From Anaerolineae bacterium (lineage in GTDB: Bacteria > Chloroflexota > Anaerolineae > UBA1429): 64,000 nt of DNA. Location: the NCBI GenBank assembly GCA_040767425.1, contig JAXGON010000006.1:54595-118594 (forward strand), written 5' to 3'. Below the pieces are notes generated by a model. It worked only from the letters and a program-made list of their open reading frames with translations, did not search any database and was not told where the DNA came from. Positions 7,310 to 19,423 of the stretch are shown here, in pieces; position 1 is the stretch's first letter; each line of letters begins with the position of its first letter. The translations under genes were made by a program, and so were the position numbers.

Positions 7310-8410
7310 CTAGTGAATCGCGAGCTCGGTGTCGCGGTCGAACACGTGCATGTTGTCCATGTTAAAGTAGAGCTCTACTTCCTGGCCAACACGGGCGACG
7401 GTACGCGGGTCCACGCGAGCGATATAGTTCTTGTTCCCAGAGACCATGTAGAGGTAGACCTCGTTGCCCATGAGCTCGGTCACGTCCACCTTGGAGGTCA
7501 CGCTAGCCGCGGTGATGCCAGGAGGCGCGTACTGCGGGTCATGGATGTCCTCGGGGCGGATGCCCAAGACGACCTCTTTGCCGAGATAGTCAAAGAGCGG
7601 GGGCGCCTTTTCCGCGGGAACCTTGACCTTGAAGCTGCCAGCGTCGAGGTACACGTCCTCTTTGGTGCCCGTGACCGTGACATCGAAAAAGTTCATGGCA
7701 GGGCTGCCAATAAAGCCAGCCACAAAGATGTTGGCGGGCGAGTTGTACAGCGTCTGCGGGGTGTCGCACTGCTGGAGGATGCCATCGCGCATCACCGCAA
7801 TGCGGGTGCCCATGGTCATGGCCTCAACCTGGTCATGCGTCACATAGATGAACGTGGTCTCGAGGCGCTGATGCAGCTTGGACAGCTCGGCGCGCGTCGA
7901 CACGCGCAGCTTGGCGTCCAGGTTCGACAGCGGCTCGTCCATGAGGAACACGGCTGGCTCACGCACGATGGCGCGGCCGAGGGCCACACGCTGGCGCTGA
8001 CCACCAGACAGCTGCTTGGGCTTGCGGTCCAGCAGCTCCTCGATGCCCAAGATGCCCGCAGACTCTTTTACGCGGCGGTCGATCTCGGCCTTGGGGGTCT
8101 TGCGAAGTTTGAGGCCAAAGGCCATGTTGTCGTACACGCTCATGTGCGGGTACAGAGCATAGCTCTGGAACACCATGGCGATGTCGCGGTCCTTGGGAGC
8201 CACGTCATTGACCAGACGGTCGCCGATGTAGAGATTGCCCTCGGAGAGCTCCTCCAGGCCAGCCAGGAGGCGCAGGGAGGTCGTCTTGCCGCAACCCGAG
8301 GGGCCTACGAACACGAGAAACTCTTTGTCGGCGATCTCGATGGATAGGTCGTTCACAGCGATGACGTCACCAAAGCGCTTGGTGACATGCTCGTACGTTA
8401 CACTCGCCAT
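7310..8410 (-). CDS. sugar ABC transporter ATPase (MalK/MsiK/UgpC family)
   Basis: GPSGCGKTT, VFQSYALYPH, LSGGQRQRV, DEPLSNLD, THDQVEAM motifs and TOBE domain; AAGGAG RBS; no permease adjacent. Confidence 0.96.
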   Translation of the reverse strand: MASVTYEHVTKRFGDVIAVNDLSIEIADKEFLVFVGPSGCGKTTSLRLLAGLEELSEGNLYIGDRLVNDVAPKDRDIAMVFQSYALYPHMSVYDNMAFGLKLRKTPKAEIDRRVKESAGILGIEELLDRKPKQLSGGQRQRVALGRAIVREPAVFLMDEPLSNLDAKLRVSTRAELSKLHQRLETTFIYVTHDQVEAMTMGTRIAVMRDGILQQCDTPQTLYNSPANIFVAGFIGSPAMNFFDVTVTGTKEDVYLDAGSFKVKVPAEKAPPLFDYLGKEVVLGIRPEDIHDPQYAPPGITAASVTSKVDVTELMGNEVYLYMVSGNKNYIARVDPRTVARVGQEVELYFNMDNMHVFDRDTELAIH

Positions 8411-8693
8411 CAGAAACTCCTTATGGTGTGATGCGACCAGGCTTTTGCCCGTCGCTGTGCCCCCAGAGACAGAGGGGGCGTTCGGGCTCATAGCGATGGC
8501 AGAACTGTTCGGTCAGGCGAACGCCTGGGCACAAGGCCAAAACCGTCCATCGCGGAGCCACCTGGTAAGCGAACGACGCCGCCGGGACCGTTTACGTACC
8601 TCGATAGGCTACCCTCCTGACGCGACTGCGCCCCTGAACTGTCAACGCGAAACGTTGATCGAGCCTTTATCAAAGAGGCTCGCGACGAATGCC

Positions 8694-8722
8694 AGCTTAC
8701 CCAAGGGTAGATGCGCCGTCAA
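8694..8722 (-). promoter_or_regulatory. sigma70-type promoter ~280 nt upstream of the MalK/MsiK-like gene
   Basis: TTGACG-N17-TAAGCT. Confidence 0.55.
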
Positions 8723-8754
8723 CCGCCAGCGGCGGTTTTGGTGCATGCGGCGGT

Positions 8755-9000
8755 TCACTCGGTGCCACCGCGACCCTGCTTGTACCGATAGACGATGCGC
8801 CCACGCGTGAGGTCATACGGCGAGAGCTCTACCCGCACGCGATCCCCCAGCAGGATGCGAATATAGTATTTGCGCATCTTGCCCGAGATGTACGCGAGCA
8901 CCTCGTGCCCGCTGTCCAGCTCGACACGGAACTGCGTGTTAGGCAGCGCCTCTACAATCGTACCTTCGACTTCGACCTTTTGCTTACTCGCCTTGACCAT
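8755..9000 (-). CDS. infA: translation initiation factor IF-1
   Basis: [42 protein letters not shown]; GAGGAG RBS. Confidence 0.97.
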
Positions 9001-9075
9001 TATGCGGTGGGCTGCTCCTCTTATGTGCGTCCATGCCAACAGCCCCCATGCCGTGCCTGGCACGGGAACGCCGCT

Positions 9076-9104
9076 AGTATAACAGGGCCAGAGGGCAGAG
9101 TCAA
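9076..9104 (-). promoter_or_regulatory. infA promoter
   Basis: TTGACT-N17-TATACT with TG extension. Confidence 0.8.
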
Positions 9105-9122
9105 GGTAGAAAACAATGCACC

Positions 9123-9151
9123 TTGACAGTCTCCAGCCCTTGGTGCATAGT
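9123..9151 (+). promoter_or_regulatory. probable promoter of the oxidoreductase/isomerase pair
   Basis: TTGACA-N17-CATAGT. Confidence 0.5.
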
Positions 9152-9205
9152 CCGTGAGGAGGAGATGGGGAGCGCGCGCCCGCGGGGGCGCCTCGAGCAA
9201 CGGAG

Positions 9206-10291
9206 ATGACCATGCTGCATAGCTTTGCCTATCCGACCAGGCTCAAGGTGGGGTGCATCGGCGCTGGTCGGCACGCTTTTCGCGACATCCTGCCCTGCCT
9301 AAGGTACCTGCCCATCGAGCTGGTCGCCCTAGCCGACCATGACCGCGAGCAAGGCATCGCCACAGCGTCGCTTTTCGGGGCCAAGCGGTTCTACCCGAAC
9401 CACAAGGCGCTGCTGGCCAAAGAGACGGCACTGGATGCGGTGCTGATCGTGGTGGGGCCTAACGAGCGGGGGGAGCCCGCTTACCCTGAGCTGGCCGCCG
9501 ACGCCCTCAGGGCGGGGTTTCATGTGTGGATCGAAAGTCCCTCTTGTGCGAATAGGGATGACGTCAAGACGCTGACCAACGCCTCTATGCGGGGCCGCAA
9601 GTTCATCCAGACCAACCTGAATGGCATGTTTATGCCCGCCTACCTCAAGGTGGGCGCGATCATCGAGAACCCCTCCTTTGGCAAGCCCTCTAGCTTTGTA
9701 ATGCGTTATCCCGCGCTGCTGCCGCCCGAGGCCTTTGGCAAGCCCTGCAAGGATGTGGGCTCTCTGCTGAGCGTCGTTCGTCCCTATGCCACCCTGATGC
9801 GCTTGTTCGGCGAGCCACGCGGCATGATGGTGGCCACTAACCCGCTCACGGGCGATGCGTGCATCACCTTTGGGTACCGATCCGAGCTGGTGGGCACCCT
9901 GCACCTCTGTGGCAACCAAGGCATGGGCGGGGCGCGCGAGCGGCTCGAAGTGATCGGGCAGGGGGCGCACGTGGTAGTGGAGAACGCTACCCGCGTGACG
10001 TACCATCGCCCCAGCCGCATCGAGTCCGACCCCGATCATCTGGATGCGACCGACTATTACGGGGCCGAGGCCGAGGCGCCTGTGGTGTGGGAGCCGCAGC
10101 TCTCGCAAGCGGCCGCCTACAACCAGCACTTGGTGATCCAGGGGTATCTGGGCAGTCTGGAACATTTCGCAACGCGGCTCCTGAGCAACGAGCCGCCGAA
10201 ATACGGCAATGTGGTGGACCTGCTGCATATCATGCTGGTCCTGCAAAAGATCCAAGAGGGTGAGCAGCGAACCTGGCTTAACCTCTACTAG
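9206..10291 (+). CDS. Gfo/Idh/MocA family oxidoreductase
   Basis: [10 protein letters not shown] Rossmann start; GFHVWIESP (EKP-like). Confidence 0.85.
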
Positions 10292-10318
10292 TGCCCTGAG
10301 GGGGTTGGAAGGAGCGTT

Positions 10319-11104
10319 GTGACGCAACCCATTCCCATTGGCGTGTGCACGTGCCCGGAGGCGGTTCGAGCCTTGGCCCCCGGCTATGACCATGTGGAGC
10401 TCTCGGCGGCGGCCGTGTTGGCTGGCGACGATCCTGCCAGTGACGCCGTTGACCTCGCCGCGCTGCACGCCCTCTCACCGTCCATCCGAGCGTTCAATTG
10501 CTTTTATCCCGGAAGCATCCGTCTCGTGGGGCCGGATGTGTCGCAAGAGCAGGTGGCAGCCTATGCCGCGACCACCATCGCGCGCGCGGCGGCGGTGGGC
10601 GCCGAGCTGATCGTGTTTGGCAGCGGCGGGTCGCGACGGGTTCCCGAGGGATTCGCGCGATCAGAGGCATGGGATCAGCTGGTCTGGTTTTTGCAGACGT
10701 GCGCCGATTACGCTGGCGAGCATGGCCTTCTGATCGCCATCGAGCCGCTGAACGCCGGCGAGTGCAACATCCTGAACAGCTACCGCGAGGGCGTCGAGAT
10801 GGCGCGCGAGGTCGCTCGCCCCGACGCCATCAAGGTGCTGGCCGATACCTGGCACATGGCCGTGGAGGAGGAGCCGCTGGAGGCCATTCTGGAGGCTCCC
10901 GAGTGGCTGGCGCATGTGCACCTCGCCGATAGCCCCGGCCGTGGGTATCCTGGCTCTGGCGCGTTTCCCTTTGATCGGCTGTTCGCCATCCTGCACGAGC
11001 TCGGGTATGCCGGGCGGGCCTCGATCGAGTGCCGGTGGCCTGATGATCTCACGGCCGCCTCGGCGGAGGCGCTGGCTTTTCTCAGGCCGCTAGCGGCGCG
11101 CTAG
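10319..11104 (+). CDS. sugar phosphate isomerase/epimerase (xylose isomerase-like TIM barrel)
   Basis: IEPLN, DTWH, HVHLAD and SIE metal-binding motifs. Confidence 0.9.
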   Translation: MTQPIPIGVCTCPEAVRALAPGYDHVELSAAAVLAGDDPASDAVDLAALHALSPSIRAFNCFYPGSIRLVGPDVSQEQVAAYAATTIARAAAVGAELIVFGSGGSRRVPEGFARSEAWDQLVWFLQTCADYAGEHGLLIAIEPLNAGECNILNSYREGVEMAREVARPDAIKVLADTWHMAVEEEPLEAILEAPEWLAHVHLADSPGRGYPGSGAFPFDRLFAILHELGYAGRASIECRWPDDLTAASAEALAFLRPLAAR

Positions 11105-11112
11105 AAGCCAAG

Positions 11113-11138
11113 AGGGGGCGCAACAGCGCCCCCCTTTT
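11113..11138 (+). terminator. intrinsic terminator
   Basis: GGGGGCGC-AACA-GCGCCCCC followed by CTTTT. Confidence 0.75.
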
Positions 11139-11153
11139 CGTGTTCGTGTGTCC

Positions 11154-12515
11154 TCAGCCCACTCCGGTGTGGGCAAGCTCATATCGCCCCTGCAGCCCCT
11201 TGACCGATGAGGGAGCCTGAGGAAAGTAGAGGCTCCCAAACATCCTCGCCAGACGTTGTGCCTCTTTCGGATGTAGGTCGATGAGGTTGTCGCGCTCATG
11301 GGGATCGTCCAGCAGATGGTAGAGCTCATCGGGCTGGCCCTCTGGTCGTCGGATGTAGCTCCAGGTGCCATCGCGCACGCAGCGGTCCTCAGCGCCGTGA
11401 TAGCCGGCGATGATGGCTTGCCGGTGCGTGTCGCCCCGGCCCAGCAAGAGGGGCAGTAGGCTCCTCCCCGGCAGAGCATCCAGGTTGTTCCCCATCCCCA
11501 CGATCTCCAGGAGGGTGGGGAGGATGTCGTGGAAAGAAGCCAGCGCCGTGGTACGTCGCCCGGCTCCTGTGCCGCCAGGGAGCTTGATCAGGCATGGGAC
11601 CTTGAGAAGCTCGTTGTAGAGGCGGTCAGGGCCCTTGAGGAACTTGCCGTGATCCGCCAGGGGGTGGCCGTGGTCTGCGATCAGGATGATCAACGCATCA
11701 TCGTACAGGTCGAGCGCCCGGAGCTGGTCTAGAAACCGCCCGATGTAGTGATCAACATAGGCGCATTCGCCGGCGTACAGGCCCCGGATGTAGGCGATCT
11801 CTTCCTCGCTAAAGTGGTCCGAGGCCATGCCACCGGGCGGCAGCACCAGCCGCTTGCCGCGGTAGGTAGGGTCGGTGTAGCGATCAAAGGCGGCCGGTGG
11901 CGTCCATGGCTCGTGTGGATCAAAGGAATCGAGCCACACGAACATGGGGGCTTGCCCGCGGTTGCGCTCGACCCAGGCGCTGGCCGTCTGGGTGAGGCGA
12001 GCGCAATAGTGGTCATCGGCCGTCTCGAACTCTTCTAGGTTCTTGAGCGCCGTCTCGACGATGCGCCGCCACTGAGGCGTATAGCTATCCTTGATATGGT
12101 CTTCCAGCTTGAGCTTGGAGAGTGGCGCGCTGCGGTAGGCATCGAACTCTTGGCCGCGGATCCACTCCCAGGTGCGAAAGCCGCGGTGCAGGTTCATGTC
12201 GGGCTTGAAATAGTGGTAACAATCGGTAAAGCAGGCGGTGAGATAGCCCTCCTGGGCCAGGATCTCGGGCAGAGAGCGGTCTTCCTTGGCGAGCGGCTGC
12301 CATGGGCGATGGACCAGGGTCTGCTCGCCCGTCAGCCAGCAGGTTCTGACGGGAATGGTGGGCAACCCCTCGGGGTAGCAGTTGTCCAGGGCAACGCTAT
12401 CGCGAGCTAGTGCGTCCAGGTTGGGCGTCTCGCATGGGGCCTGTGGGTTGTAAAAGCGCACATGATCCTGCCGAAAAGAGTCCAGAATCAGGAAAAAGAC
12501 GTTCGGAGCAACCAT
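11154..12515 (-). CDS. sulfatase-fold hydrolase (alkaline phosphatase superfamily) with TxPxR motif
   Basis: ILDSFRQD, TIPVRTCWLTG, FDPHEPW, ADHG and ELYHLLDDPHE motifs. Confidence 0.9.
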   Translation of the reverse strand: MVAPNVFFLILDSFRQDHVRFYNPQAPCETPNLDALARDSVALDNCYPEGLPTIPVRTCWLTGEQTLVHRPWQPLAKEDRSLPEILAQEGYLTACFTDCYHYFKPDMNLHRGFRTWEWIRGQEFDAYRSAPLSKLKLEDHIKDSYTPQWRRIVETALKNLEEFETADDHYCARLTQTASAWVERNRGQAPMFVWLDSFDPHEPWTPPAAFDRYTDPTYRGKRLVLPPGGMASDHFSEEEIAYIRGLYAGECAYVDHYIGRFLDQLRALDLYDDALIILIADHGHPLADHGKFLKGPDRLYNELLKVPCLIKLPGGTGAGRRTTALASFHDILPTLLEIVGMGNNLDALPGRSLLPLLLGRGDTHRQAIIAGYHGAEDRCVRDGTWSYIRRPEGQPDELYHLLDDPHERDNLIDLHPKEAQRLARMFGSLYFPQAPSSVKGLQGRYELAHTGVG

Positions 12516-12670
12516 GGGCAGAACCTCCTCTGGCGCGTGCCACCTCCCGATCGACCGTAACGCGATTCTAGCATGGCCTTTGGCCTGGCGTCCACCAGGC
12601 GCGAGCGCGCCCTGGACAGGACACCCGCGTGGCATAGAATGGCCTCAAGGCTCACGGCAAGGAGGCGGCC

Positions 12671-13747
12671 ATGGATCATACCCTGACTCCCCAGCGGATC
12701 ATCAACAGCGTGGCACCCATCCGCATCTGCGACAATGGCGGCTGGACCGACACCTGGTTCGCCGAGCGGGGACGCATCTTTAACATCGGTGTCTATCCCT
12801 ATGTCGAGGTTCAGATCCAGGTGTTTGCGCGAGCGGAGCGCGAGCATCGCGTGGTGCTGCATGCCGAGAACTTTGGCGACCGTTACGCCGTGATGCCCCG
12901 CCACGAAAAGCACGAATGGATCCACCATCCGCTGCTAGAGGCGGCCATCGACCATATGGGGGTTCCGGAGAATCTGGCGGTGCAGATCTCGATCTACTCG
13001 GAGGCGCCGGCTGGCTGCTCGACGGGAACGTCGGCCGCCGTGACGGTGGCTCTGGTGGGGGCGCTAGATCGCCTCACGCCAGGAGGGATGACGCCTTCCC
13101 AGGTAGCGTACACCGCTCACCATATCGAGACGCAGATGCTCCATCAACAGTCGGGCATCCAGGATCAGCTCTGCTCGGCCTTTGGGGGCGTGAACTATAT
13201 CGAGATGTACGCCTATCCGTACGCCTCAGTCTCGCCCATCTTTGTCTCCAACAGCGTCTGGTGGGAGCTTGAGCGTCGCTTGGCGCTGATCTTTTTGGGG
13301 AGGTCTCACAGCTCCAGCCAGGTCCATGAGATGGTCATCCGTGACCTGGAGGATGCCGGCCCCGACAACCCCAAGCTGGAGGCGTTGCGGCAGTGCGCGG
13401 ATCGATCACGCGACGCCCTGTATGCTGGGGATCTCGACGCGCTAGGGCAGGCGATGGTCGCCAATACCGACGCGCAGCGCAACCTGCATCCGCAGCTCAT
13501 TAGCGGCGAGGCCGACCAGATCATTGCCATCGCGCGCGAGTACGGGGCTCTGGGCTGGAAGGTGAACGGCGCGGGGGGCGAGGGCGGATCAATCACGTTG
13601 CTCTCGGGTGCCCTCATGAGCCAGAAGCGAGCGATGCTGCGGGCCATCGAGGAGACGAATCCGCTGTTTCAGCCGATCCCCATCTACCTGAGCAGGTTTG
13701 GCCTGCGGGTATGGAGCCGACAACCGGACAACTGTCACTCAGAGTAA
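12671..13747 (+). CDS. GHMP-family sugar kinase (HddA/fucokinase-like)
   Basis: APIRICDNGGWTD, PAGCSTGTSAA and KVNGAGGEGG motifs. Confidence 0.9.
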   Translation: MDHTLTPQRIINSVAPIRICDNGGWTDTWFAERGRIFNIGVYPYVEVQIQVFARAEREHRVVLHAENFGDRYAVMPRHEKHEWIHHPLLEAAIDHMGVPENLAVQISIYSEAPAGCSTGTSAAVTVALVGALDRLTPGGMTPSQVAYTAHHIETQMLHQQSGIQDQLCSAFGGVNYIEMYAYPYASVSPIFVSNSVWWELERRLALIFLGRSHSSSQVHEMVIRDLEDAGPDNPKLEALRQCADRSRDALYAGDLDALGQAMVANTDAQRNLHPQLISGEADQIIAIAREYGALGWKVNGAGGEGGSITLLSGALMSQKRAMLRAIEETNPLFQPIPIYLSRFGLRVWSRQPDNCHSE

Positions 13748-13771
13748 AGCCCTGGGGGATGCCCAGGGCTT
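13747..13771. terminator. bidirectional hairpin terminator
   Basis: AAGCCCTGGG-GGATG-CCCAGGGCTT between convergent genes. Confidence 0.7.
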
Positions 13772-13798
13772 GCGGGGTCTCGGGTTGTACGGCCAGAC

Positions 13799-14941
13799 TT
13801 AGCGGTGGAAATGGTCCGTCTCGCGGCGGTCAGGGCCGTCGACCTCCTTGGGCTTGGACTCTTCCACACGCTCGGCCAAGAAGGCGTCATAGCGAGCACG
13901 GTCTACGGGTATGCTGACGGGCTCACCCAGATGGCCCGAGAGGATCATGGCATTGATCAGCTCAACCGAGTTGATCCCCTCGACGCCGGGCGTCAATAGC
14001 TCATCGCCGCGCAAGAGGTGGTTGGCCATATTGCGGAGCACGGCGACGTGACCGCTGTCGCATTCGGGCAGCTCGATCTCGACCTCGTGAGCGGGCGGCG
14101 CGCCCCACATCTGGTCCGTCGAGTCGCTCCAGGCGCGCACTCCATCGGGGATCTCCCAGAAGGTGAGCTGGGAGCCCAGCACTCGCAGCTTGCCATGTTC
14201 GCCGGATAGTTCCATCAAGTTGGTGCCGGGCGCTTCGGTGGTGGAGCAGTAGATATAGCCTGTGGCGCCATTGGGGTAAGTGAGAATGGCCGAGGCGACG
14301 TCCTCCACCTCGATCTGGTGCATCTTGGTGGCGGTGTAGGCGGTGACCTTGTCGGGGAGGCCGCCCAGCCAGGTGAAGCGATCCAGGGAGTGGGGCGCCT
14401 GGTTCATCAGAACCCCGCCGCCCTCGCCCGCCCAGGTGGCGCGCCAGCCGGCCGAGTTATAGTAGGCCTGGCTGCGGAAATCCGCATAGACGAGCATGGT
14501 GCGATAGATCTCGCCCAGGCGGCCGCTCTTGACCAGCTCATGGGCTGCTCGCCACACGGGCTCGGTGCGGCTCTGATACATGACCGCAAAGGGCGTGCCG
14601 GTGCGCTTGGCCGCAGCCACCATGGCATCGGCTGCCGAGACGGTGACGGCGATGGGCTTTTCCGAGATGACCGGCTTGCCCTGTTCCATGGCATAGATGG
14701 CGATCTCGGGGTGGAAATAGTGCGGCGTCGCCACAACGACGACGTCCACGTCCGGGCGATCGATCAGTTCCTGGTAGGCGGTGCAGAACGGCACGCCGAA
14801 TTCTTCGCCAACGGCGTTGGCGACGTCGGGGACGATATCACAGACGGCGGTGAGCACGCCCTCGGGCATCCCCTGAAGGGTGCGCGCGTGTCCGGTTCCC
14901 ATCCCACCGGTGCCGACGATGCCAAAGCGTACCTGATCCAT
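13799..14941 (-). CDS. Gfo/Idh/MocA family oxidoreductase
   Basis: GIVGTGGMG, ATPHYFH, SEKPI and GGGVLMNQAPHSLD motifs. Confidence 0.95.
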   Translation of the reverse strand: MDQVRFGIVGTGGMGTGHARTLQGMPEGVLTAVCDIVPDVANAVGEEFGVPFCTAYQELIDRPDVDVVVVATPHYFHPEIAIYAMEQGKPVISEKPIAVTVSAADAMVAAAKRTGTPFAVMYQSRTEPVWRAAHELVKSGRLGEIYRTMLVYADFRSQAYYNSAGWRATWAGEGGGVLMNQAPHSLDRFTWLGGLPDKVTAYTATKMHQIEVEDVASAILTYPNGATGYIYCSTTEAPGTNLMELSGEHGKLRVLGSQLTFWEIPDGVRAWSDSTDQMWGAPPAHEVEIELPECDSGHVAVLRNMANHLLRGDELLTPGVEGINSVELINAMILSGHLGEPVSIPVDRARYDAFLAERVEESKPKEVDGPDRRETDHFHR

Positions 14942-14983
14942 GAGGTGTCCCCCTTTGTAGCACATAGGTCGATCCACGAGGGC

Positions 14984-15011
14984 ATTATAGCGCCCGGCCT
15001 GGCCCAGGCAA
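14984..15011 (-). promoter_or_regulatory. sigma70-type promoter
   Basis: TTGCCT-N16-TATAAT. Confidence 0.55.
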
Positions 15012-15081
15012 CCCCGCGGGGAGACTCGGCCTGGAGGAGCCGCACCCGATCCCGCCGTGGATCGCCGCTTGAGAACAGGAG

Positions 15082-16380
15082 GTGATGATGAACCTTCAAG
15101 TAGCCAGCGCACTGGAGAGCTCTCTCCGACGAGGCACCATCGCCGGCGTCTCGGATGCCTTGGGCGCGGGTAGCTTTCTGATGCCTAGCTATGGCGGGTG
15201 CTCTCTGGCTAACGTGCCGGCGACGGCGGCCGGGCTGTTAGGGGTGTCGACGCCTGGCGTGCAGCCGCCCGCAGCCCCCTACTACTGGGAGCATCTAGGG
15301 GCTCCGGTGCGCCGAGTGGTGTTGGTGCTGGTGGACGCTCTCGGCTATCTCTACTTGCGGCCGATGCTGGACGACAGCCGCGCGGGTATCTGGCGCCAAC
15401 TGGCCGACAGGGGTGTGTTTCTGCCGATGACCGCCATCTGTCCCAGCACGACGATCACCTCACTGGCTACCCTGATGACGGGCGCCTCGCCCGCCCAGCA
15501 CGGCCTACTGGGCTATGAGCTCTGGCTGCGAGAGCTGGGCGTGTTGGCGGAGATGCTCTCGCTCAAACCGGTCTATGGGGCGGGCCACGATACGCTGGTG
15601 TCATGGGGCCTGGACCCCGCGCGATTGCTGCCGGTCCCAACGTTAGCCGAGCGCCTGGCGGCCGAGGGCGTGGCGACCGTAGGGCTGGTGGCTGGCGCGC
15701 ATCTTGACAGCCCGCTGAGCCAAGCCCTCTACCGCGGTACGGGGCGCTTGATGGGGTACGACGAGGTGGGAGGTCTATGGAGACAGCTCGCGACCCTGTT
15801 GGAGACGCCACCAACGTGCCCCGAGCTGATCATGGCCTACTGGGGTGGCCTTGACACCTCGATCCACCTCCATGGAACCAGAGACGGCGCCTGGCAGGCG
15901 GCCTGGGCCGCCTTTACCCAGGCGATGACAAAAGGGCTGGAGACGCTTTCCAGCCGTGCGCGGGAGGATACCGCCCTGATCATCTTGGCGGATCATGGCT
16001 TTGTGGACTCGCCCGAGGATGCCGCCCACGATCTGGACAGCGAAGGCAGCCTGCGCTCCGCTTGCTTGGTGCCGCCGTCGGGCGAGGCGCGGTTGGCCTT
16101 TTTGCATGCCATGGGTGCCGAGGGGGCGGTGCAGCTGCGCCGCCTGCTGGAGGCCGATTTCGCCATGCTGGATGCGCCCGTCGCCCTCAGGGCGGGTCTC
16201 TTTGGCCCTGGGAGCCCCGCTGACGAGACGCCAGCGCGATTGGGGGATCTCTTGGCGATTGCGCGCGCCGATCACTATCTGGATCGGCTCGAACGGCGCA
16301 AGCGCCTGCGCGGCAGGCATGGTGGCCTTAGCCCCGAGGAGATGCTGATCCCGTGGCTGGCCGTCAGGTTGGACGCCTAG
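15082..16380 (+). CDS. alkaline phosphatase family phosphodiesterase (NPP/PglZ-like)
   Basis: LVDALG, CPSTTITSLATLMTG (Thr nucleophile), DTSIH, ADHG and HGGLSPEEM motifs. Confidence 0.88.
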   Translation: MMMNLQVASALESSLRRGTIAGVSDALGAGSFLMPSYGGCSLANVPATAAGLLGVSTPGVQPPAAPYYWEHLGAPVRRVVLVLVDALGYLYLRPMLDDSRAGIWRQLADRGVFLPMTAICPSTTITSLATLMTGASPAQHGLLGYELWLRELGVLAEMLSLKPVYGAGHDTLVSWGLDPARLLPVPTLAERLAAEGVATVGLVAGAHLDSPLSQALYRGTGRLMGYDEVGGLWRQLATLLETPPTCPELIMAYWGGLDTSIHLHGTRDGAWQAAWAAFTQAMTKGLETLSSRAREDTALIILADHGFVDSPEDAAHDLDSEGSLRSACLVPPSGEARLAFLHAMGAEGAVQLRRLLEADFAMLDAPVALRAGLFGPGSPADETPARLGDLLAIARADHYLDRLERRKRLRGRHGGLSPEEMLIPWLAVRLDA

Positions 16381-17441
16381 TCTGGCTGCGCTCGCCGCCC
16401 GATCACGGCAAGGCCGTTCTGCGGCAGGGCTTGCTGGATGGCGTCCACCTCCTCGGCAGAGAGGAACCCGTCCAGGAGCAGCGGCTTGTGGTCGAGCATC
16501 TTGGCAAAGGTGGGCAACAATTCGCGCCAATGCGGGGCGCTGGGCGGCGGATCCAACGACACCTGCAGGGCGGTGGGATAGGGTCCTTGCAGCAGCGTGT
16601 CGATCACGTGGAGCGATCCCGAATGCAGGTGCATGATGCTGTACTGGGCCACCTGGGCGGTGCGCAGATCCCACGGGGCCAGGCGATCGGCGTACAACCT
16701 GGACGAGGTGAGGGCAGAGGCATCGCATTGGGTGCGGACGGTGGTTCCTGGCGCCCAGATGCCGTACCAGTTCACCGAACCCCCGGCCAGGCGCGGGATG
16801 AGCGCTGCCTGCTTGCGCCATACCTCCTCAAAGAGCTCCGTGGTGTAGGCCAGCAGGGCCGAGAGCTCCTCGGGCTGATCATAGATGGCCAGGCACAACC
16901 GTTCGGCGCCCACCATCGCTTCGGCGATGTCGGCGGGGCCACGCATCAGCGTGTGGGCCACCGCCTCTCCTTCCGGGGCTGCCGCCACCATGCGCCGAAT
17001 GAGGTCGAGCAGCGCGTCTAGCCAGCCGTTCTGGCGCCACTCGGGTAGGCGTTCCAGGTCGCTCCAGTCGGAGAGCAGGGGGCGCGTGCGCATGGATCCG
17101 GCCCGGATCAGGGCGCGAATCTGGCAGCCCGCGATGGCCTCCATCCAAGGCAAACGGATGTAGGGGAGACGGGCTGGCACCAGATCACCACCGGTGGCGG
17201 TTGCCAGGCTGTCGCGGGGTGGATCTGCCAACCTGTCCAGGTCCAGCGACTCGGGCGTCAGGTCGATGTCCGCCTGAGCGAGGGAGCCGTCGGCCAGCGG
17301 CAACCAGAGGCTGGCCAGCTCGGGCTCGTAGGGGCGGGCGAACAGGCGGGCTCGGCCCTCCCACCATGCGGCGTGTTGCGCCAGGAGCTCAGGCCGATAG
17401 GGCGCTGCCGACTTTTGGGCGGACGACACGGGCTCCATCAT
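16377..17441 (-). CDS. UroD/MtaA-like TIM-barrel protein, function unknown
   Basis: RGPADIAEAMVG, LAIYDQPEE, QCDASAL and MHLH layout typical of the UroD/methyltransferase superfamily. Confidence 0.7.
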   Translation of the reverse strand: MMEPVSSAQKSAAPYRPELLAQHAAWWEGRARLFARPYEPELASLWLPLADGSLAQADIDLTPESLDLDRLADPPRDSLATATGGDLVPARLPYIRLPWMEAIAGCQIRALIRAGSMRTRPLLSDWSDLERLPEWRQNGWLDALLDLIRRMVAAAPEGEAVAHTLMRGPADIAEAMVGAERLCLAIYDQPEELSALLAYTTELFEEVWRKQAALIPRLAGGSVNWYGIWAPGTTVRTQCDASALTSSRLYADRLAPWDLRTAQVAQYSIMHLHSGSLHVIDTLLQGPYPTALQVSLDPPPSAPHWRELLPTFAKMLDHKPLLLDGFLSAEEVDAIQQALPQNGLAVIGRRAQPD

Positions 17442-18514
17442 GGCACATCCTCCCAGTCGGTCTCTTCCAGGCGGCGTCGCAGCTGTTCGGGCACCTGGCC
17501 CGTCTCCGAGAGGCGCTGGATGGCGTCGTCGGCGTCTCGGAAGCGGATCGGCTCGACGCCAAAGGCCTCGGCTTTGTCCAAGGGGATGGCCTCAATGGCC
17601 TCATCCTCGACGGGGCTGACGAGCTCGGCCAAGTACGCCTGGGCGCCGTCCAGGTCATCGACCAGCTGCGCGCCGGATTGGGTCCACGCCTGGATCTGGG
17701 CCTGGTCGCCGCGGCGCCAAACGGCCATGGGCACCCGTCCCCGCGCTAGCGCATCGTGGCCGGGCCAGTCCTCGGGCCCCGAGGGCGGCTCGATCAGCAA
17801 CCCGACTCCCGTCAGCGCCGCGACGATCTCGCGCCTGGCCTGGGCGCGTAGGTCCGAGAGCTCGGCATCGGGGGCATAGGGGCTGAGCACCAGCAGGCGT
17901 CCCTCCCGGAGCGGTACCTGGAAGCTGGTCAGCGCGGCAGCAAAGCGCTCGATGCCCAAAGGGAGTACAAACACGGCCGACCCGCCGGCGGCCAACGAAG
18001 CATTCATGGTCAGTCGCTCGACCCCCTCTTCGTAGCCGCCCACCAAGGCGGCCTCGAGGGGAGCGGTCCCCTGTCCTAACGCTTGCGCCAGCGCCTGCGC
18101 GGCGCCACTGGGCGAGGGGGCGCCCGTGATCCAGACGGCGGGCTCTGCGAGGAGCTCCAGCTCGCCTCGGTAAAAGAGATAGTAGGGCTGGTGTGTGGCG
18201 TCCAGTCGCGCAGCGAGGCGGTGAGGATAGGCGGCATCCTGTCTCAGGATGACGTGTACATCCTGCTTGGCCAGGGAGACGAGGCGCTGTTCCCAAGATG
18301 CCACCCGTTCGGCCTTTGCTAGCATTCTGGCCAGGACCGCTGGCGCCAGATCGAGGTGCTCGGTCAGATCGTCCACGCTCAAGCCCATGAACTCGCGCAT
18401 GGATCGCGCGTCCTCCAGGCACCAGCGCTGGAGCACGCGCTTGGCCGCTTTGCGTGGGATATCGTCCGCCTCGAGGATCGCTAGCCAGCTTGCCGCTTCG
18501 GTATGGTCGGCCAC
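17438..18514 (-). CDS. divergent DprA/Smf (SLOG)-like protein
   Basis: AAGGGGAG RBS plus GTG; YPHRL, LFYRGELELL, GGYEEGVE, VLPLGI and LIEP follow the DprA layout. Confidence 0.75.
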   Translation of the reverse strand: MADHTEAASWLAILEADDIPRKAAKRVLQRWCLEDARSMREFMGLSVDDLTEHLDLAPAVLARMLAKAERVASWEQRLVSLAKQDVHVILRQDAAYPHRLAARLDATHQPYYLFYRGELELLAEPAVWITGAPSPSGAAQALAQALGQGTAPLEAALVGGYEEGVERLTMNASLAAGGSAVFVLPLGIERFAAALTSFQVPLREGRLLVLSPYAPDAELSDLRAQARREIVAALTGVGLLIEPPSGPEDWPGHDALARGRVPMAVWRRGDQAQIQAWTQSGAQLVDDLDGAQAYLAELVSPVEDEAIEAIPLDKAEAFGVEPIRFRDADDAIQRLSETGQVPEQLRRRLEETDWEDVP

Positions 18515-18619
18515 AGCTCCCCCTTGTCTCCGAACACCACTGATCATTCTAGGGGCAGAGATTTCCGTGTCAACGCGTTCGGCCGTCGGCGCTCGGGCAT
18601 GGCCTCGGCAGCCAGAAGG

Positions 18620-18628
18620 TGGTATACT
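18620..18628 (+). promoter_or_regulatory. extended -10 promoter of the five-gene catabolic operon
   Basis: TGgTATACT ~50 nt upstream of the SDR start. Confidence 0.5.
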
Positions 18629-18679
18629 CGCGAACGGTGGCTCTAAGGCATCACGGAGCATGATGGGAGGTTGGTTGGG

Positions 18680-19423
18680 ATGCAAATAGATCTGAGCGGC
18701 AAGGGCGCCGTGGTCACGGGCGGCGCAGGGGGGATCGGAGAGGCCTGCGCGCGGATGCTGGCCGATGCTGGTGCCCGCGTCGTCGTGCTGGATATCAACG
18801 CCGAGGGGGCGCAAAGAGTGGCAGAATCGCTGCCTGGCGGCCTGGCCATCGCATGCGACCTGGGGGACGAGGCCTCGGTCAGGGCTTCTTGCGCCGCGGC
18901 TGTTTCGGCGCTGGGCGGAGTCGATATCCTGATCAACAACGCTGGCATCATCTCGTACCGTCAGGGTGTGCGGGCCGTCAGCCCAGACGAATGGGACCAG
19001 GTGCTGGATGTGAACCTGCGCGGCACCTTTTTGATGTGCCGAGAGCTGATCGATAGCATGAAGGAGCGCGGCTGGGGCAAGGTGGTGAACTTTTCCTCGT
19101 TGGCGGCGCGCGTGGGCGGCATCGAGGTGGGCATTCACTATGCCGCCTCCAAGGCGGGGTTGCTCGGCCTCACGCGGACGCTGGCCAAGGAGGGGGCGCC
19201 GCACGGCATCACGGTGAATGCGGTGGCTCCTGGCGTCATCGCCACGGGGCCCGTGCTGCGCCAGGTGGCCGACCACGAGGACGCCTATCGGCAGACCATC
19301 CCCATGGGCAGGCTGGGGCAGCCCGAGGATGTGGCTAGGGTGGTGCTGTTCCTATCGTCGCCGCTCTCGGATTATGTGACGGGGATCGTGATCGACGTCA
19401 ACGGTGGCATGTACATGGGGTAG
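18680..19423 (+). CDS. SDR family NAD(P)-dependent oxidoreductase
   Basis: TGGAGGIG, NNAG and YAASK motifs. Confidence 0.95.
   Translation: MQIDLSGKGAVVTGGAGGIGEACARMLADAGARVVVLDINAEGAQRVAESLPGGLAIACDLGDEASVRASCAAAVSALGGVDILINNAGIISYRQGVRAVSPDEWDQVLDVNLRGTFLMCRELIDSMKERGWGKVVNFSSLAARVGGIEVGIHYAASKAGLLGLTRTLAKEGAPHGITVNAVAPGVIATGPVLRQVADHEDAYRQTIPMGRLGQPEDVARVVLFLSSPLSDYVTGIVIDVNGGMYMG

Follow-up and report, generated by a model that had tools for sequence, protein, structure and literature searches.

The S1 sulfatases are described by explicit sequence signatures (Barbeyron et al., 2016; PMC5066984), among them (C/S)-x-(P/A)-x-R, which holds the Cys or Ser residue that is matured to formylglycine. 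The maturation enzymes FGE and anSME convert Cys and Ser only, and the phosphonate monoester hydrolases (PMHs), which share the sulfatase scaffold, are also described as formylglycine enzymes (PMC5066984). The existence of Thr-bearing members of Pfam family PF00884 is, as a general point, already in the literature: 30 of the 59 seed sequences of the family carry Thr, a residue that cannot yield formylglycine, its oxidation leading to a ketone, and such proteins are not to be named sulfatases (PMC5066984). The membrane enzymes LtaS, EptA and YejM lack the P-x-R that follows in sulfatases, LtaS reading T-x-N-x-E (PMC5066984). EfAS and the PMHs, the nearest relatives of the protein treated here, turn over phosphonate and phosphate esters (PMC12421950), and in Halobacterium salinarum the sulfatase-fold proteins Agl30 (VNG1056C) and Agl31 (VNG1057C) are genetically required for N-glycan sulfation (PMC11980604). 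In this work, we characterize a gene for a sulfatase-fold protein bearing Thr at the formylglycine position, located on the minus strand at 11154-12515 of a 64,000-nucleotide stretch from an Anaerolineae bacterium (GenBank assembly GCA_040767425.1, contig JAXGON010000006.1, positions 54,595 to 118,594 of the forward strand); this whole stretch is referred to as the window, and positions are given in its numbering.

Tentatively, and with a confidence somewhat short of even, we propose that the product is a maturation-independent, metal-dependent phosphoryl-transfer enzyme that acts on a sugar phosphate and is accessory to a neighbouring sugar module. The T-x-P-x-R clade to which it belongs, which is large and labelled 'sulfatase' in databases, most likely handles phosphate esters instead. 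What is new for this locus is the failure of three S1 signatures, the replacement of a Lys by Asp98 in the active site, the presence of Cys variants within the family, and the situation of the gene as a dispensable insert in a six-gene module. The gene and the motifs on which this proposal is built are the following:

11154-12515, minus strand: coding sequence of the Thr-type sulfatase-fold protein, stop codon included; 453 amino acids (translation, Pfam, AlphaFold2, Foldseek).
12465-12482, minus strand: D12-S13-F-R15-Q-D17, N-terminal metal-site motif, with S13 where S1 enzymes have Asp or Gln.
12345-12359, minus strand: T53-I-P-V-R57, in the place of the C/S-x-P-x-R formylglycine signature, with T53 as presumed nucleophile and an invariant R57.
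12213-12224, minus strand: D98-C-Y-H101; D98 stands at the sulfate-binding Lys of the S1 'G-K-x-H' signature and H101 at the S1 His.
11910-11930, minus strand: D196-S-F-D199-P-H201-E202; the flanking acidic residues are family-specific.
11634-11675, minus strand: D281-H282-G ... H289-G ... K294, second metal-ligand pair and anion-binding Lys.

The codons at 12359 to 12345 of the minus strand (ACC ATT CCC GTC AGA) encode T53-I-P-V-R57 and are followed by T-C-W-L-T62-G63, and T53 aligns with the formylglycine Cys or Ser of the solved structures 9koq, 5g2v, 7oz8, 7p24, 4upl and 9s03 in both pairwise and profile alignments. The initial annotation, made from the sequence alone, had placed a Thr (ACC) at the formylglycine position in TIPVR and had described the metal motifs as intact; both points stand, as D12-S-F-R15-Q-D17, D199-P-H201 and D281-H282-G283 are all present. 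Residues 4-340 of the protein match PF00884 with 128.6 bits (4e-37) against a gathering cut-off of 25. An AlphaFold2 model built from a 38-sequence alignment reached a mean predicted local distance difference test score (pLDDT) of 92 and a predicted template modelling score (pTM) of 0.91, with the last 23 residues alone disordered. In Foldseek searches of the PDB, the top matches were all S1 sulfatases or PMHs (9koq, 6ptk, 7oz8, 4uph, 2w8s, 2vqr and choline sulfatases), with template modelling (TM) scores of 0.65-0.76 at 18-23% identity; the PDB searches returned no solved chain from the Thr clade itself.

Active-site residues were mapped by alignment to EfAS (9koq), with residue roles taken from PMC12421950, giving these correspondences:

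D12: EfAS D20, a metal ligand.
S13: EfAS Q21; Asp in classical sulfatases.
T53: EfAS C61, the formylglycine position.
R57: EfAS R65.
D98: EfAS K110, with the charge reversed.
H101: EfAS H112, with a one-residue shift.
H201: EfAS H220, the His of the S1 'P-H-x-P' motif.
D281 and H282: EfAS D311 and H312, metal ligands.
K294: EfAS K324, the anion-binding Lys.

On this mapping, the single divalent-metal site (D12, T53, D281, H282) is predicted to be intact, with R57, H101, H201 and K294 kept, and it looks mononuclear, in the sulfatase/PMH layout given by K294 and H201. Asp98 in place of Lys and Ser13 in place of Asp or Gln are two active-site departures beyond those in the initial annotation; at the Asp98 position, the same six solved structures that were aligned at T53 carry Lys.

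The threonine is a property of the family rather than of this genome. The 120 best homologues, at 55-94% identity, come mostly from metagenome-assembled genomes (MAGs) of Anaerolineae and other Chloroflexota and are annotated as 'sulfatase' or 'arylsulfatase A-like'; T-x-P-x-R occurs in all 117 of them that are full-length. The initial annotation had allowed that its claim would fail should close homologues all carry Cys or Ser, the Thr then being a read error or a private mutation; this is set aside by the homologues, and the Thr extends to distant ones as well. A search of 1.84 billion cluster representatives (50%-identity clusters) returned 1878 clusters at E<1e-30, and residues were counted over the 127 full-length representatives among the best 150 clusters, at about 30-52% identity; a search of the ESM Atlas returned the same family only. 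Three departures from S1 proved family-wide, namely Thr at the formylglycine position (122/127, with Cys in the other five), Ser or Thr for Asp or Gln at position 13 (126/127), and Asp for Lys at position 98 (120/127). The rest of the site is kept as well: D12 in 126 representatives, R15 and D17 in 120 each, H201, D281 and H282 in all 127, E202 and K294 in 125, and D199 in 105, with H201 lying within a family-specific D-P-H-E-P motif. The five Cys representatives (P0217, P0219, P0236, P0244 and P0265) have P-C-M-P-A-R for P-T-x-P-x-R and keep both Asp98 and D-P-H-E. These five are natural nucleophile swaps, of use for probing the chemistry.

At the DNA level, the Thr53 codon in 52 distinct related gene copies from the fetched loci is ACC in 25, ACG in 19, ACT in five and ACA in three; all four Thr codons being in use, selection acts on the amino acid and not on a shared base, and Thr53 is, judged by its codons, under purifying selection. 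A FastTree phylogeny of the representatives, rooted on the Cys-type sulfatases of the same genome, placed the Thr family apart with 99% local support and requires two to three Thr/Cys switches within it.

The host is a 2.07-Mb, 64% GC, 90.7%-complete MAG of the class Anaerolineae, whose closest public relatives are Anaerolineales MAGs. It holds four or five Cys-type sulfatase genes (C-S-P-T-R, C-T-P-S-R and similar; contigs C18, C1, C3 and C19), together with a fragment of FGE (PF03781, 125 bits) at a contig end (G000:C34:23-535, plus strand), and is therefore probably able to mature real sulfatases. Since the host has these Cys-type sulfatases and the FGE fragment as well, the Thr form represents a distinct lineage. 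The same genome also encodes a paralogue (G000:C8:91396-92838, minus strand) with Thr, no P-x-R (P-H-V-P-T-T-S-G-Y...L-T-G) and A-D-H-G, which belongs to a different Thr-type subfamily. Because Thr is conserved across the family and FGE and anSME are limited to Cys and Ser, the enzyme cannot depend on formylglycine maturation; the earlier suggestion of a maturation-independent enzyme is thus borne out by the family-wide Thr and by the published range of the maturases (PMC5066984).

Class membership was assessed against published definitions. Three of the four S1 signatures (Barbeyron et al., 2016; PMC5066984) fail: the protein has T-I-P-V-R for (C/S)-x-(P/A)-x-R, G-Y-L-T-A-C-F-T-D98-C-Y-H for G-Y-x-[TSCV]-x(3)-G-K-...-[WMYNLF]-[HLGN], and L-D12-S13-F-R for the Ca-binding 1 pattern ending in [DE]-[DQ]-[LMQVH]-[GRANTDS]. 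The fourth, the D-[N/H/Q]-G metal pair, is there as the invariant D281-H282-G283, and so is the two-domain alpha/beta fold. For the PMHs (S1_0), which are recognized by formylglycine together with a D-H pair, the pair is present and the nucleophile is Thr. The motifs of the T-x-P-x-R clade are all found (D-[ST]-x-R-x-D; P-T-x-P-x-R...T-G; D..H; D-P-H-E-P; D-H-G...K), each of them in at least 105 of the 127 representatives.

In sequence, the protein comes nearest to a cytoplasmic group of promiscuous enzymes with the pattern 'D-Q-x-R-x-D ... D-H-G', comprising the arylsulfatases and PMHs represented by EfAS (9koq), SpAS2 (4upl), ArPMH (4uph), RlPMH (2vqr), BcPMH (2w8s) and a choline sulfatase (6fny). 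Our protein resembles them in its two-domain fold (Foldseek E-values of 1e-24 to 1e-27 and TM scores of 0.70-0.76), in the absence of a signal peptide, in the D-x-x-R-x-D start, in the x-x-P-x-R...T-G helix cap with the nucleophile in the same place, and in the P-H-x-P His, the D-H-G metal pair and the G-E-H-G...K Lys. It differs from them in having Thr for the formylglycine Cys or Ser, Ser or Thr for the second Asp or Gln, Asp for the 'G-K' Lys, and extra conserved acidic residues around H201 (D-P-H-E), and the identity is 18-23%. Neither a signal peptide nor a membrane segment was detected in it, its first beta-strand beginning at residue 5, and it is accordingly predicted to be soluble and cytoplasmic.

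The initial annotation had further likened the protein to the NPP-type members of the superfamily, which use an unmodified Thr, and this analogy holds in part. The NPP enzymes (PF01663) share with it the superfamily, the Thr nucleophile and D-H-G. By alignment, the positions of the second-zinc ligands of NPP and alkaline phosphatase hold the sulfatase-type H201 and K294, so that the layout looks like that of a mononuclear sulfatase or PMH and not of a two-metal enzyme. Instead of the full-length PF01663 match and the two-zinc ligands that mark an NPP, the match is limited to residues 250-285, 36 residues around D-H-G.

Three considerations lead us to phosphoryl transfer, namely the behaviour of Thr nucleophiles, the promiscuity of the nearest relatives and the fate of a sulfated Ser or Thr. 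To our knowledge, every characterised Thr nucleophile in the superfamily serves phosphoryl or phospho-alcohol transfer (NPP, PafA, PhnA, LtaS, EptA, phosphopentomutase); the phospho(di)esterase or phosphonatase activity that the initial annotation had suggested as possible would rest on this behaviour. In sulfatase mutants in which formylglycine is changed to Ser, the reaction comes to a dead end at a sulfo-Ser/Thr intermediate, which is the accepted reason for the formylglycine gem-diol. In the proposed mechanism, a metal-activated Thr53 alkoxide would attack either a phosphate monoester or a diester or phosphonate ester with a single charge, and the resulting phospho-threonyl enzyme intermediate would then be resolved by water. 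Asp98 would lower the positive charge of the pocket, as is likewise the case in PMHs, and as a predicted pocket residue it suits a diester or phosphonate ester that bears a single charge, a cationic or polyol substrate, or use as an acceptor base. In the cell, this accessory enzyme, transcribed separately, would take a phosphate off a sugar that enters or leaves the six-gene module, or shift it to another position on that sugar.

The gene appears to start at the ATG at 12515, which has a Shine-Dalgarno sequence (GAGGAGG, 12530-12524) 8 nt upstream, and homologue alignments begin at their own residue 2. The open reading frame (ORF) extends upstream to 12635, and this 40-codon extension is unused, since the Shine-Dalgarno sequence and the homologue starts both fit 12515. 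With its own promoter-like site, strong Shine-Dalgarno sequence and terminator-like hairpin, the gene looks monocistronic; the 155-bp intergenic region that it shares with the GHMP kinase gene also contains a promoter-like site at 12613-12640, and neither a riboswitch nor any further RNA was matched in its vicinity by Rfam. These signals and the neighbouring genes are as follows:

9206-10291, plus strand: Gfo/Idh/MocA oxidoreductase (a), upstream of the TIM-barrel gene.
10319-11104, plus strand: xylose-isomerase-like TIM barrel (PF01261, PDB matches), nearest to ketose 3-epimerases, convergent with the sulfatase-fold gene.
11114-11133, no strand assigned: GC-rich hairpin with an 8-bp stem, terminator-like, between the convergent stops of the TIM-barrel and sulfatase-fold genes.
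12524-12594, minus strand: putative expression signals of the sulfatase-fold gene, promoter-like TGGACG-18-TAGAAT (12594-12565) and GAGGAGG (12530-12524), as consensus matches only.
12671-13747, plus strand: sugar kinase of the GHMP type, closest to the heptose-7-phosphate kinases (WcbL/HddA) and transcribed divergently from the sulfatase-fold gene.
13799-14941, minus strand: Gfo/Idh/MocA oxidoreductase (b); its ORF reaches 15112 and the likely start is the Met before the Rossmann motif.
15082-16380, plus strand: second protein of the alkaline phosphatase superfamily, PF01663 (6e-24), with the Thr motif C-P-S-T-T-I-T-S...T-G and A-D-H-G.
16377-17441, minus strand: URO-D-like protein, last gene of the six-gene module.

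The six-gene module (9206-17441) keeps its order across the family: URO-D-like, NPP-like, Gfo-b, GHMP kinase, TIM barrel and Gfo-a. The structures nearest to the GHMP kinase are WcbL (4usk) and HddA (3k85, 4n3o), and the NCBIfam matches of the TIM-barrel protein all fall under their cut-offs. Genomes without the sulfatase-fold gene still have the PF01663 gene (15082-16380) in their module. Beyond the module, a 612-aa ORF at 17438-19276 (minus strand) carries a DprA domain (DNA_processg_A) confined to residues 335-496 and is unusually long for DprA, its N-terminal half having no assigned domain.

An ortholog of the sulfatase-fold gene (at least 52% identity) was present in about 25 of the 301 genomes of the class that were sampled. 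Across 22 ortholog loci at 70% identity or more, the adjacent genes were the TIM-barrel gene in 14, the first Gfo gene in 11, the GHMP kinase in eight and the NPP-like gene in six; in family f37, the ortholog and the TIM barrel are both present, on different contigs. In the L012/L065 lineage, a galactokinase-type GHMP kinase lies directly upstream of the ortholog on the same strand, with a sugar transporter of the major facilitator superfamily (MFS) near. At L012, this kinase (8578-9960, plus strand; G187:C8; GalKase_gal_bdg with GHMP N and C domains) lies about 40 bp upstream of a 74%-identical ortholog, and a YhhN protein and the MFS sugar transporter are found downstream. At L014, L017 and L021, a protein with Rdx (PF10262) and UGSC (PF24696) domains is encoded about 1 kb upstream of the ortholog (about 8380-9090, minus strand); the window contains no neighbour of this kind. 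An apparent fusion in G094 (L064), in which a 1212-aa ORF includes the ortholog, was discarded as a spurious frame in GC-rich DNA, its first 750 residues holding no Pfam domain and a 691-aa ORF lying opposite. We also considered the enzyme as a substitute for GmhB beside the HddA-like kinase. GmhB (TIGR00213) was not found in the 90.7%-complete host genome; the kinase is present in 10 of 10 sister genomes, most of them without the sulfatase-fold gene, and the idea is retained as speculation only. Gene context does not fix the substrate.

Several observations weigh against a phosphoryl-transfer enzyme that serves the module, and they concern both its context and its chemistry. Within the same family, the ortholog was found in two of 10 genomes (a third has only a 38% paralogue), against 10 of 10 for the kinase and the TIM barrel. 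Two sister genomes, G205 (L074, G205:C112) and G032 (L075, G032:C15), keep the six-gene order without the sulfatase-fold gene, with about 590 bp and no remnant at its place; because sister genomes retain the six genes without it, the gene is accessory and the module does not depend on it. The orthologs at 52-64% identity and the family members at 33-47% have unrelated neighbours and no recurrent partner: clustering of the neighbours of distant members (L022-L032, L064-L073) gave no recurrent neighbour, and their Pfam functions are unrelated. Asp in place of Lys is unexpected for the binding of a dianionic phosphate monoester. The five Cys representatives share the altered active site, and the pocket is therefore not strictly tied to Thr, or to Thr chemistry alone. 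In the literature and the PDB, we found no assay or structure of the soluble, S1-like T-x-P-x-R clade. Finally, Agl30 and Agl31 (PMC11980604) would favour a transferase, should they turn out to belong to this type.

The main rival to the proposed phosphoryl-transfer role is a group transferase or mutase, which we regard as rather unlikely. Here, an activated donor or a sugar hydroxyl would give up a phospho-, phosphono- or sulfo-group to Thr53, which would pass it on to a sugar hydroxyl, with Asp98, a new conserved carboxylate in the pocket, as the acceptor base. LtaS, EptA and phosphopentomutase do work as group transferases or mutases, and the well-studied Thr-type PF00884 enzymes that we know of (LtaS, EptA/MCR) are all transferases. 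What LtaS, EptA/MCR and YejM have in common with our protein is PF00884, a nucleophilic Thr that is left unmodified at the corresponding position, and the D-H metal pair; they are membrane-anchored and extracytoplasmic, whereas it has no membrane segment. The multi-pass membrane domain and the equivalog hidden Markov model score by which these enzymes are recognized are both missing, the NCBIfam matches being weak (27.7 against a cut-off of 970, 20.4 against 1200 and 18.1 against 825) and the LtaS and EptA motifs absent. Two different anomeric-type GHMP kinases adjoin orthologs, which would fit a kinase-plus-mutase pair, but no glycosyltransferase, nucleotidyltransferase or gene for the synthesis of 3'-phosphoadenosine 5'-phosphosulfate (PAPS) lies near the sulfatase-fold gene. 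The requirement of Agl30 and Agl31 for N-glycan sulfation may also speak for a transferase: both are soluble, have the sulfatase fold and bear the annotation 'sulfatase', and what they are needed for is the addition of sulfate. Their nucleophile and catalytic residues are not stated in PMC11980604, and they stand in a glycosylation cluster and not beside a sugar-conversion module.

A true sulfatase, cleaving sugar sulfate esters without formylglycine by direct use of Thr or by another route, is quite improbable. The fold, R57, H101, H201, K294 and the metal site are all sulfatase-like, and Anaerolineae are rich in sulfatases, several of which are present in this host; against this stand the three unmatched S1 signatures, the loss of the sulfate-binding Lys and the dead-end sulfo-Ser/Thr intermediate of the formylglycine-to-Ser mutants. 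Hardly credible is a pseudo-enzyme without catalysis, kept for binding or regulation after the loss of its sulfatase chemistry. The canonical nucleophile and Lys are indeed lost, and the gene is patchy and accessory in its distribution; yet more than 120 clusters at 30-50% identity show little or no variation in the metal ligands, Thr53, R57, H201 and K294, and all four Thr codons are used. An active site in decay would not stay so uniform.

In its broadest form, the proposal of a Thr-dependent phosphoryl-transfer enzyme can be extended to a possible, if doubtful, third mechanistic branch of the arylsulfatase/PMH scaffold, in which formylglycine has reverted to Thr and the Lys has become Asp, yielding a cytoplasmic sugar-phosphate phosphatase or mutase, or a sulfo- or phosphono-group transferase, that would, in this organism, plug as one step into a sugar module of the heptose or ketose type. 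Counts of 'sulfatase' genes are widely taken as evidence that sulfated polysaccharides are broken down in sediments, guts and oceans, and Anaerolineae and Planctomycetota are frequently named as groups rich in sulfatases. Such counts are inflated by the Thr clade, which comprises at least 122 clusters at 50% identity, and should the third-branch reading be true, the 'sulfatases' counted in metagenomes would include a large class that never touches sulfate esters. The Thr clade constitutes a natural experiment, in which the S1/PMH pocket is combined with a Thr nucleophile and an occasional swap to Cys, and it bears both on the need of sulfatases for formylglycine and on how the identity of the nucleophile tracks the type of reaction in the alkaline phosphatase superfamily.

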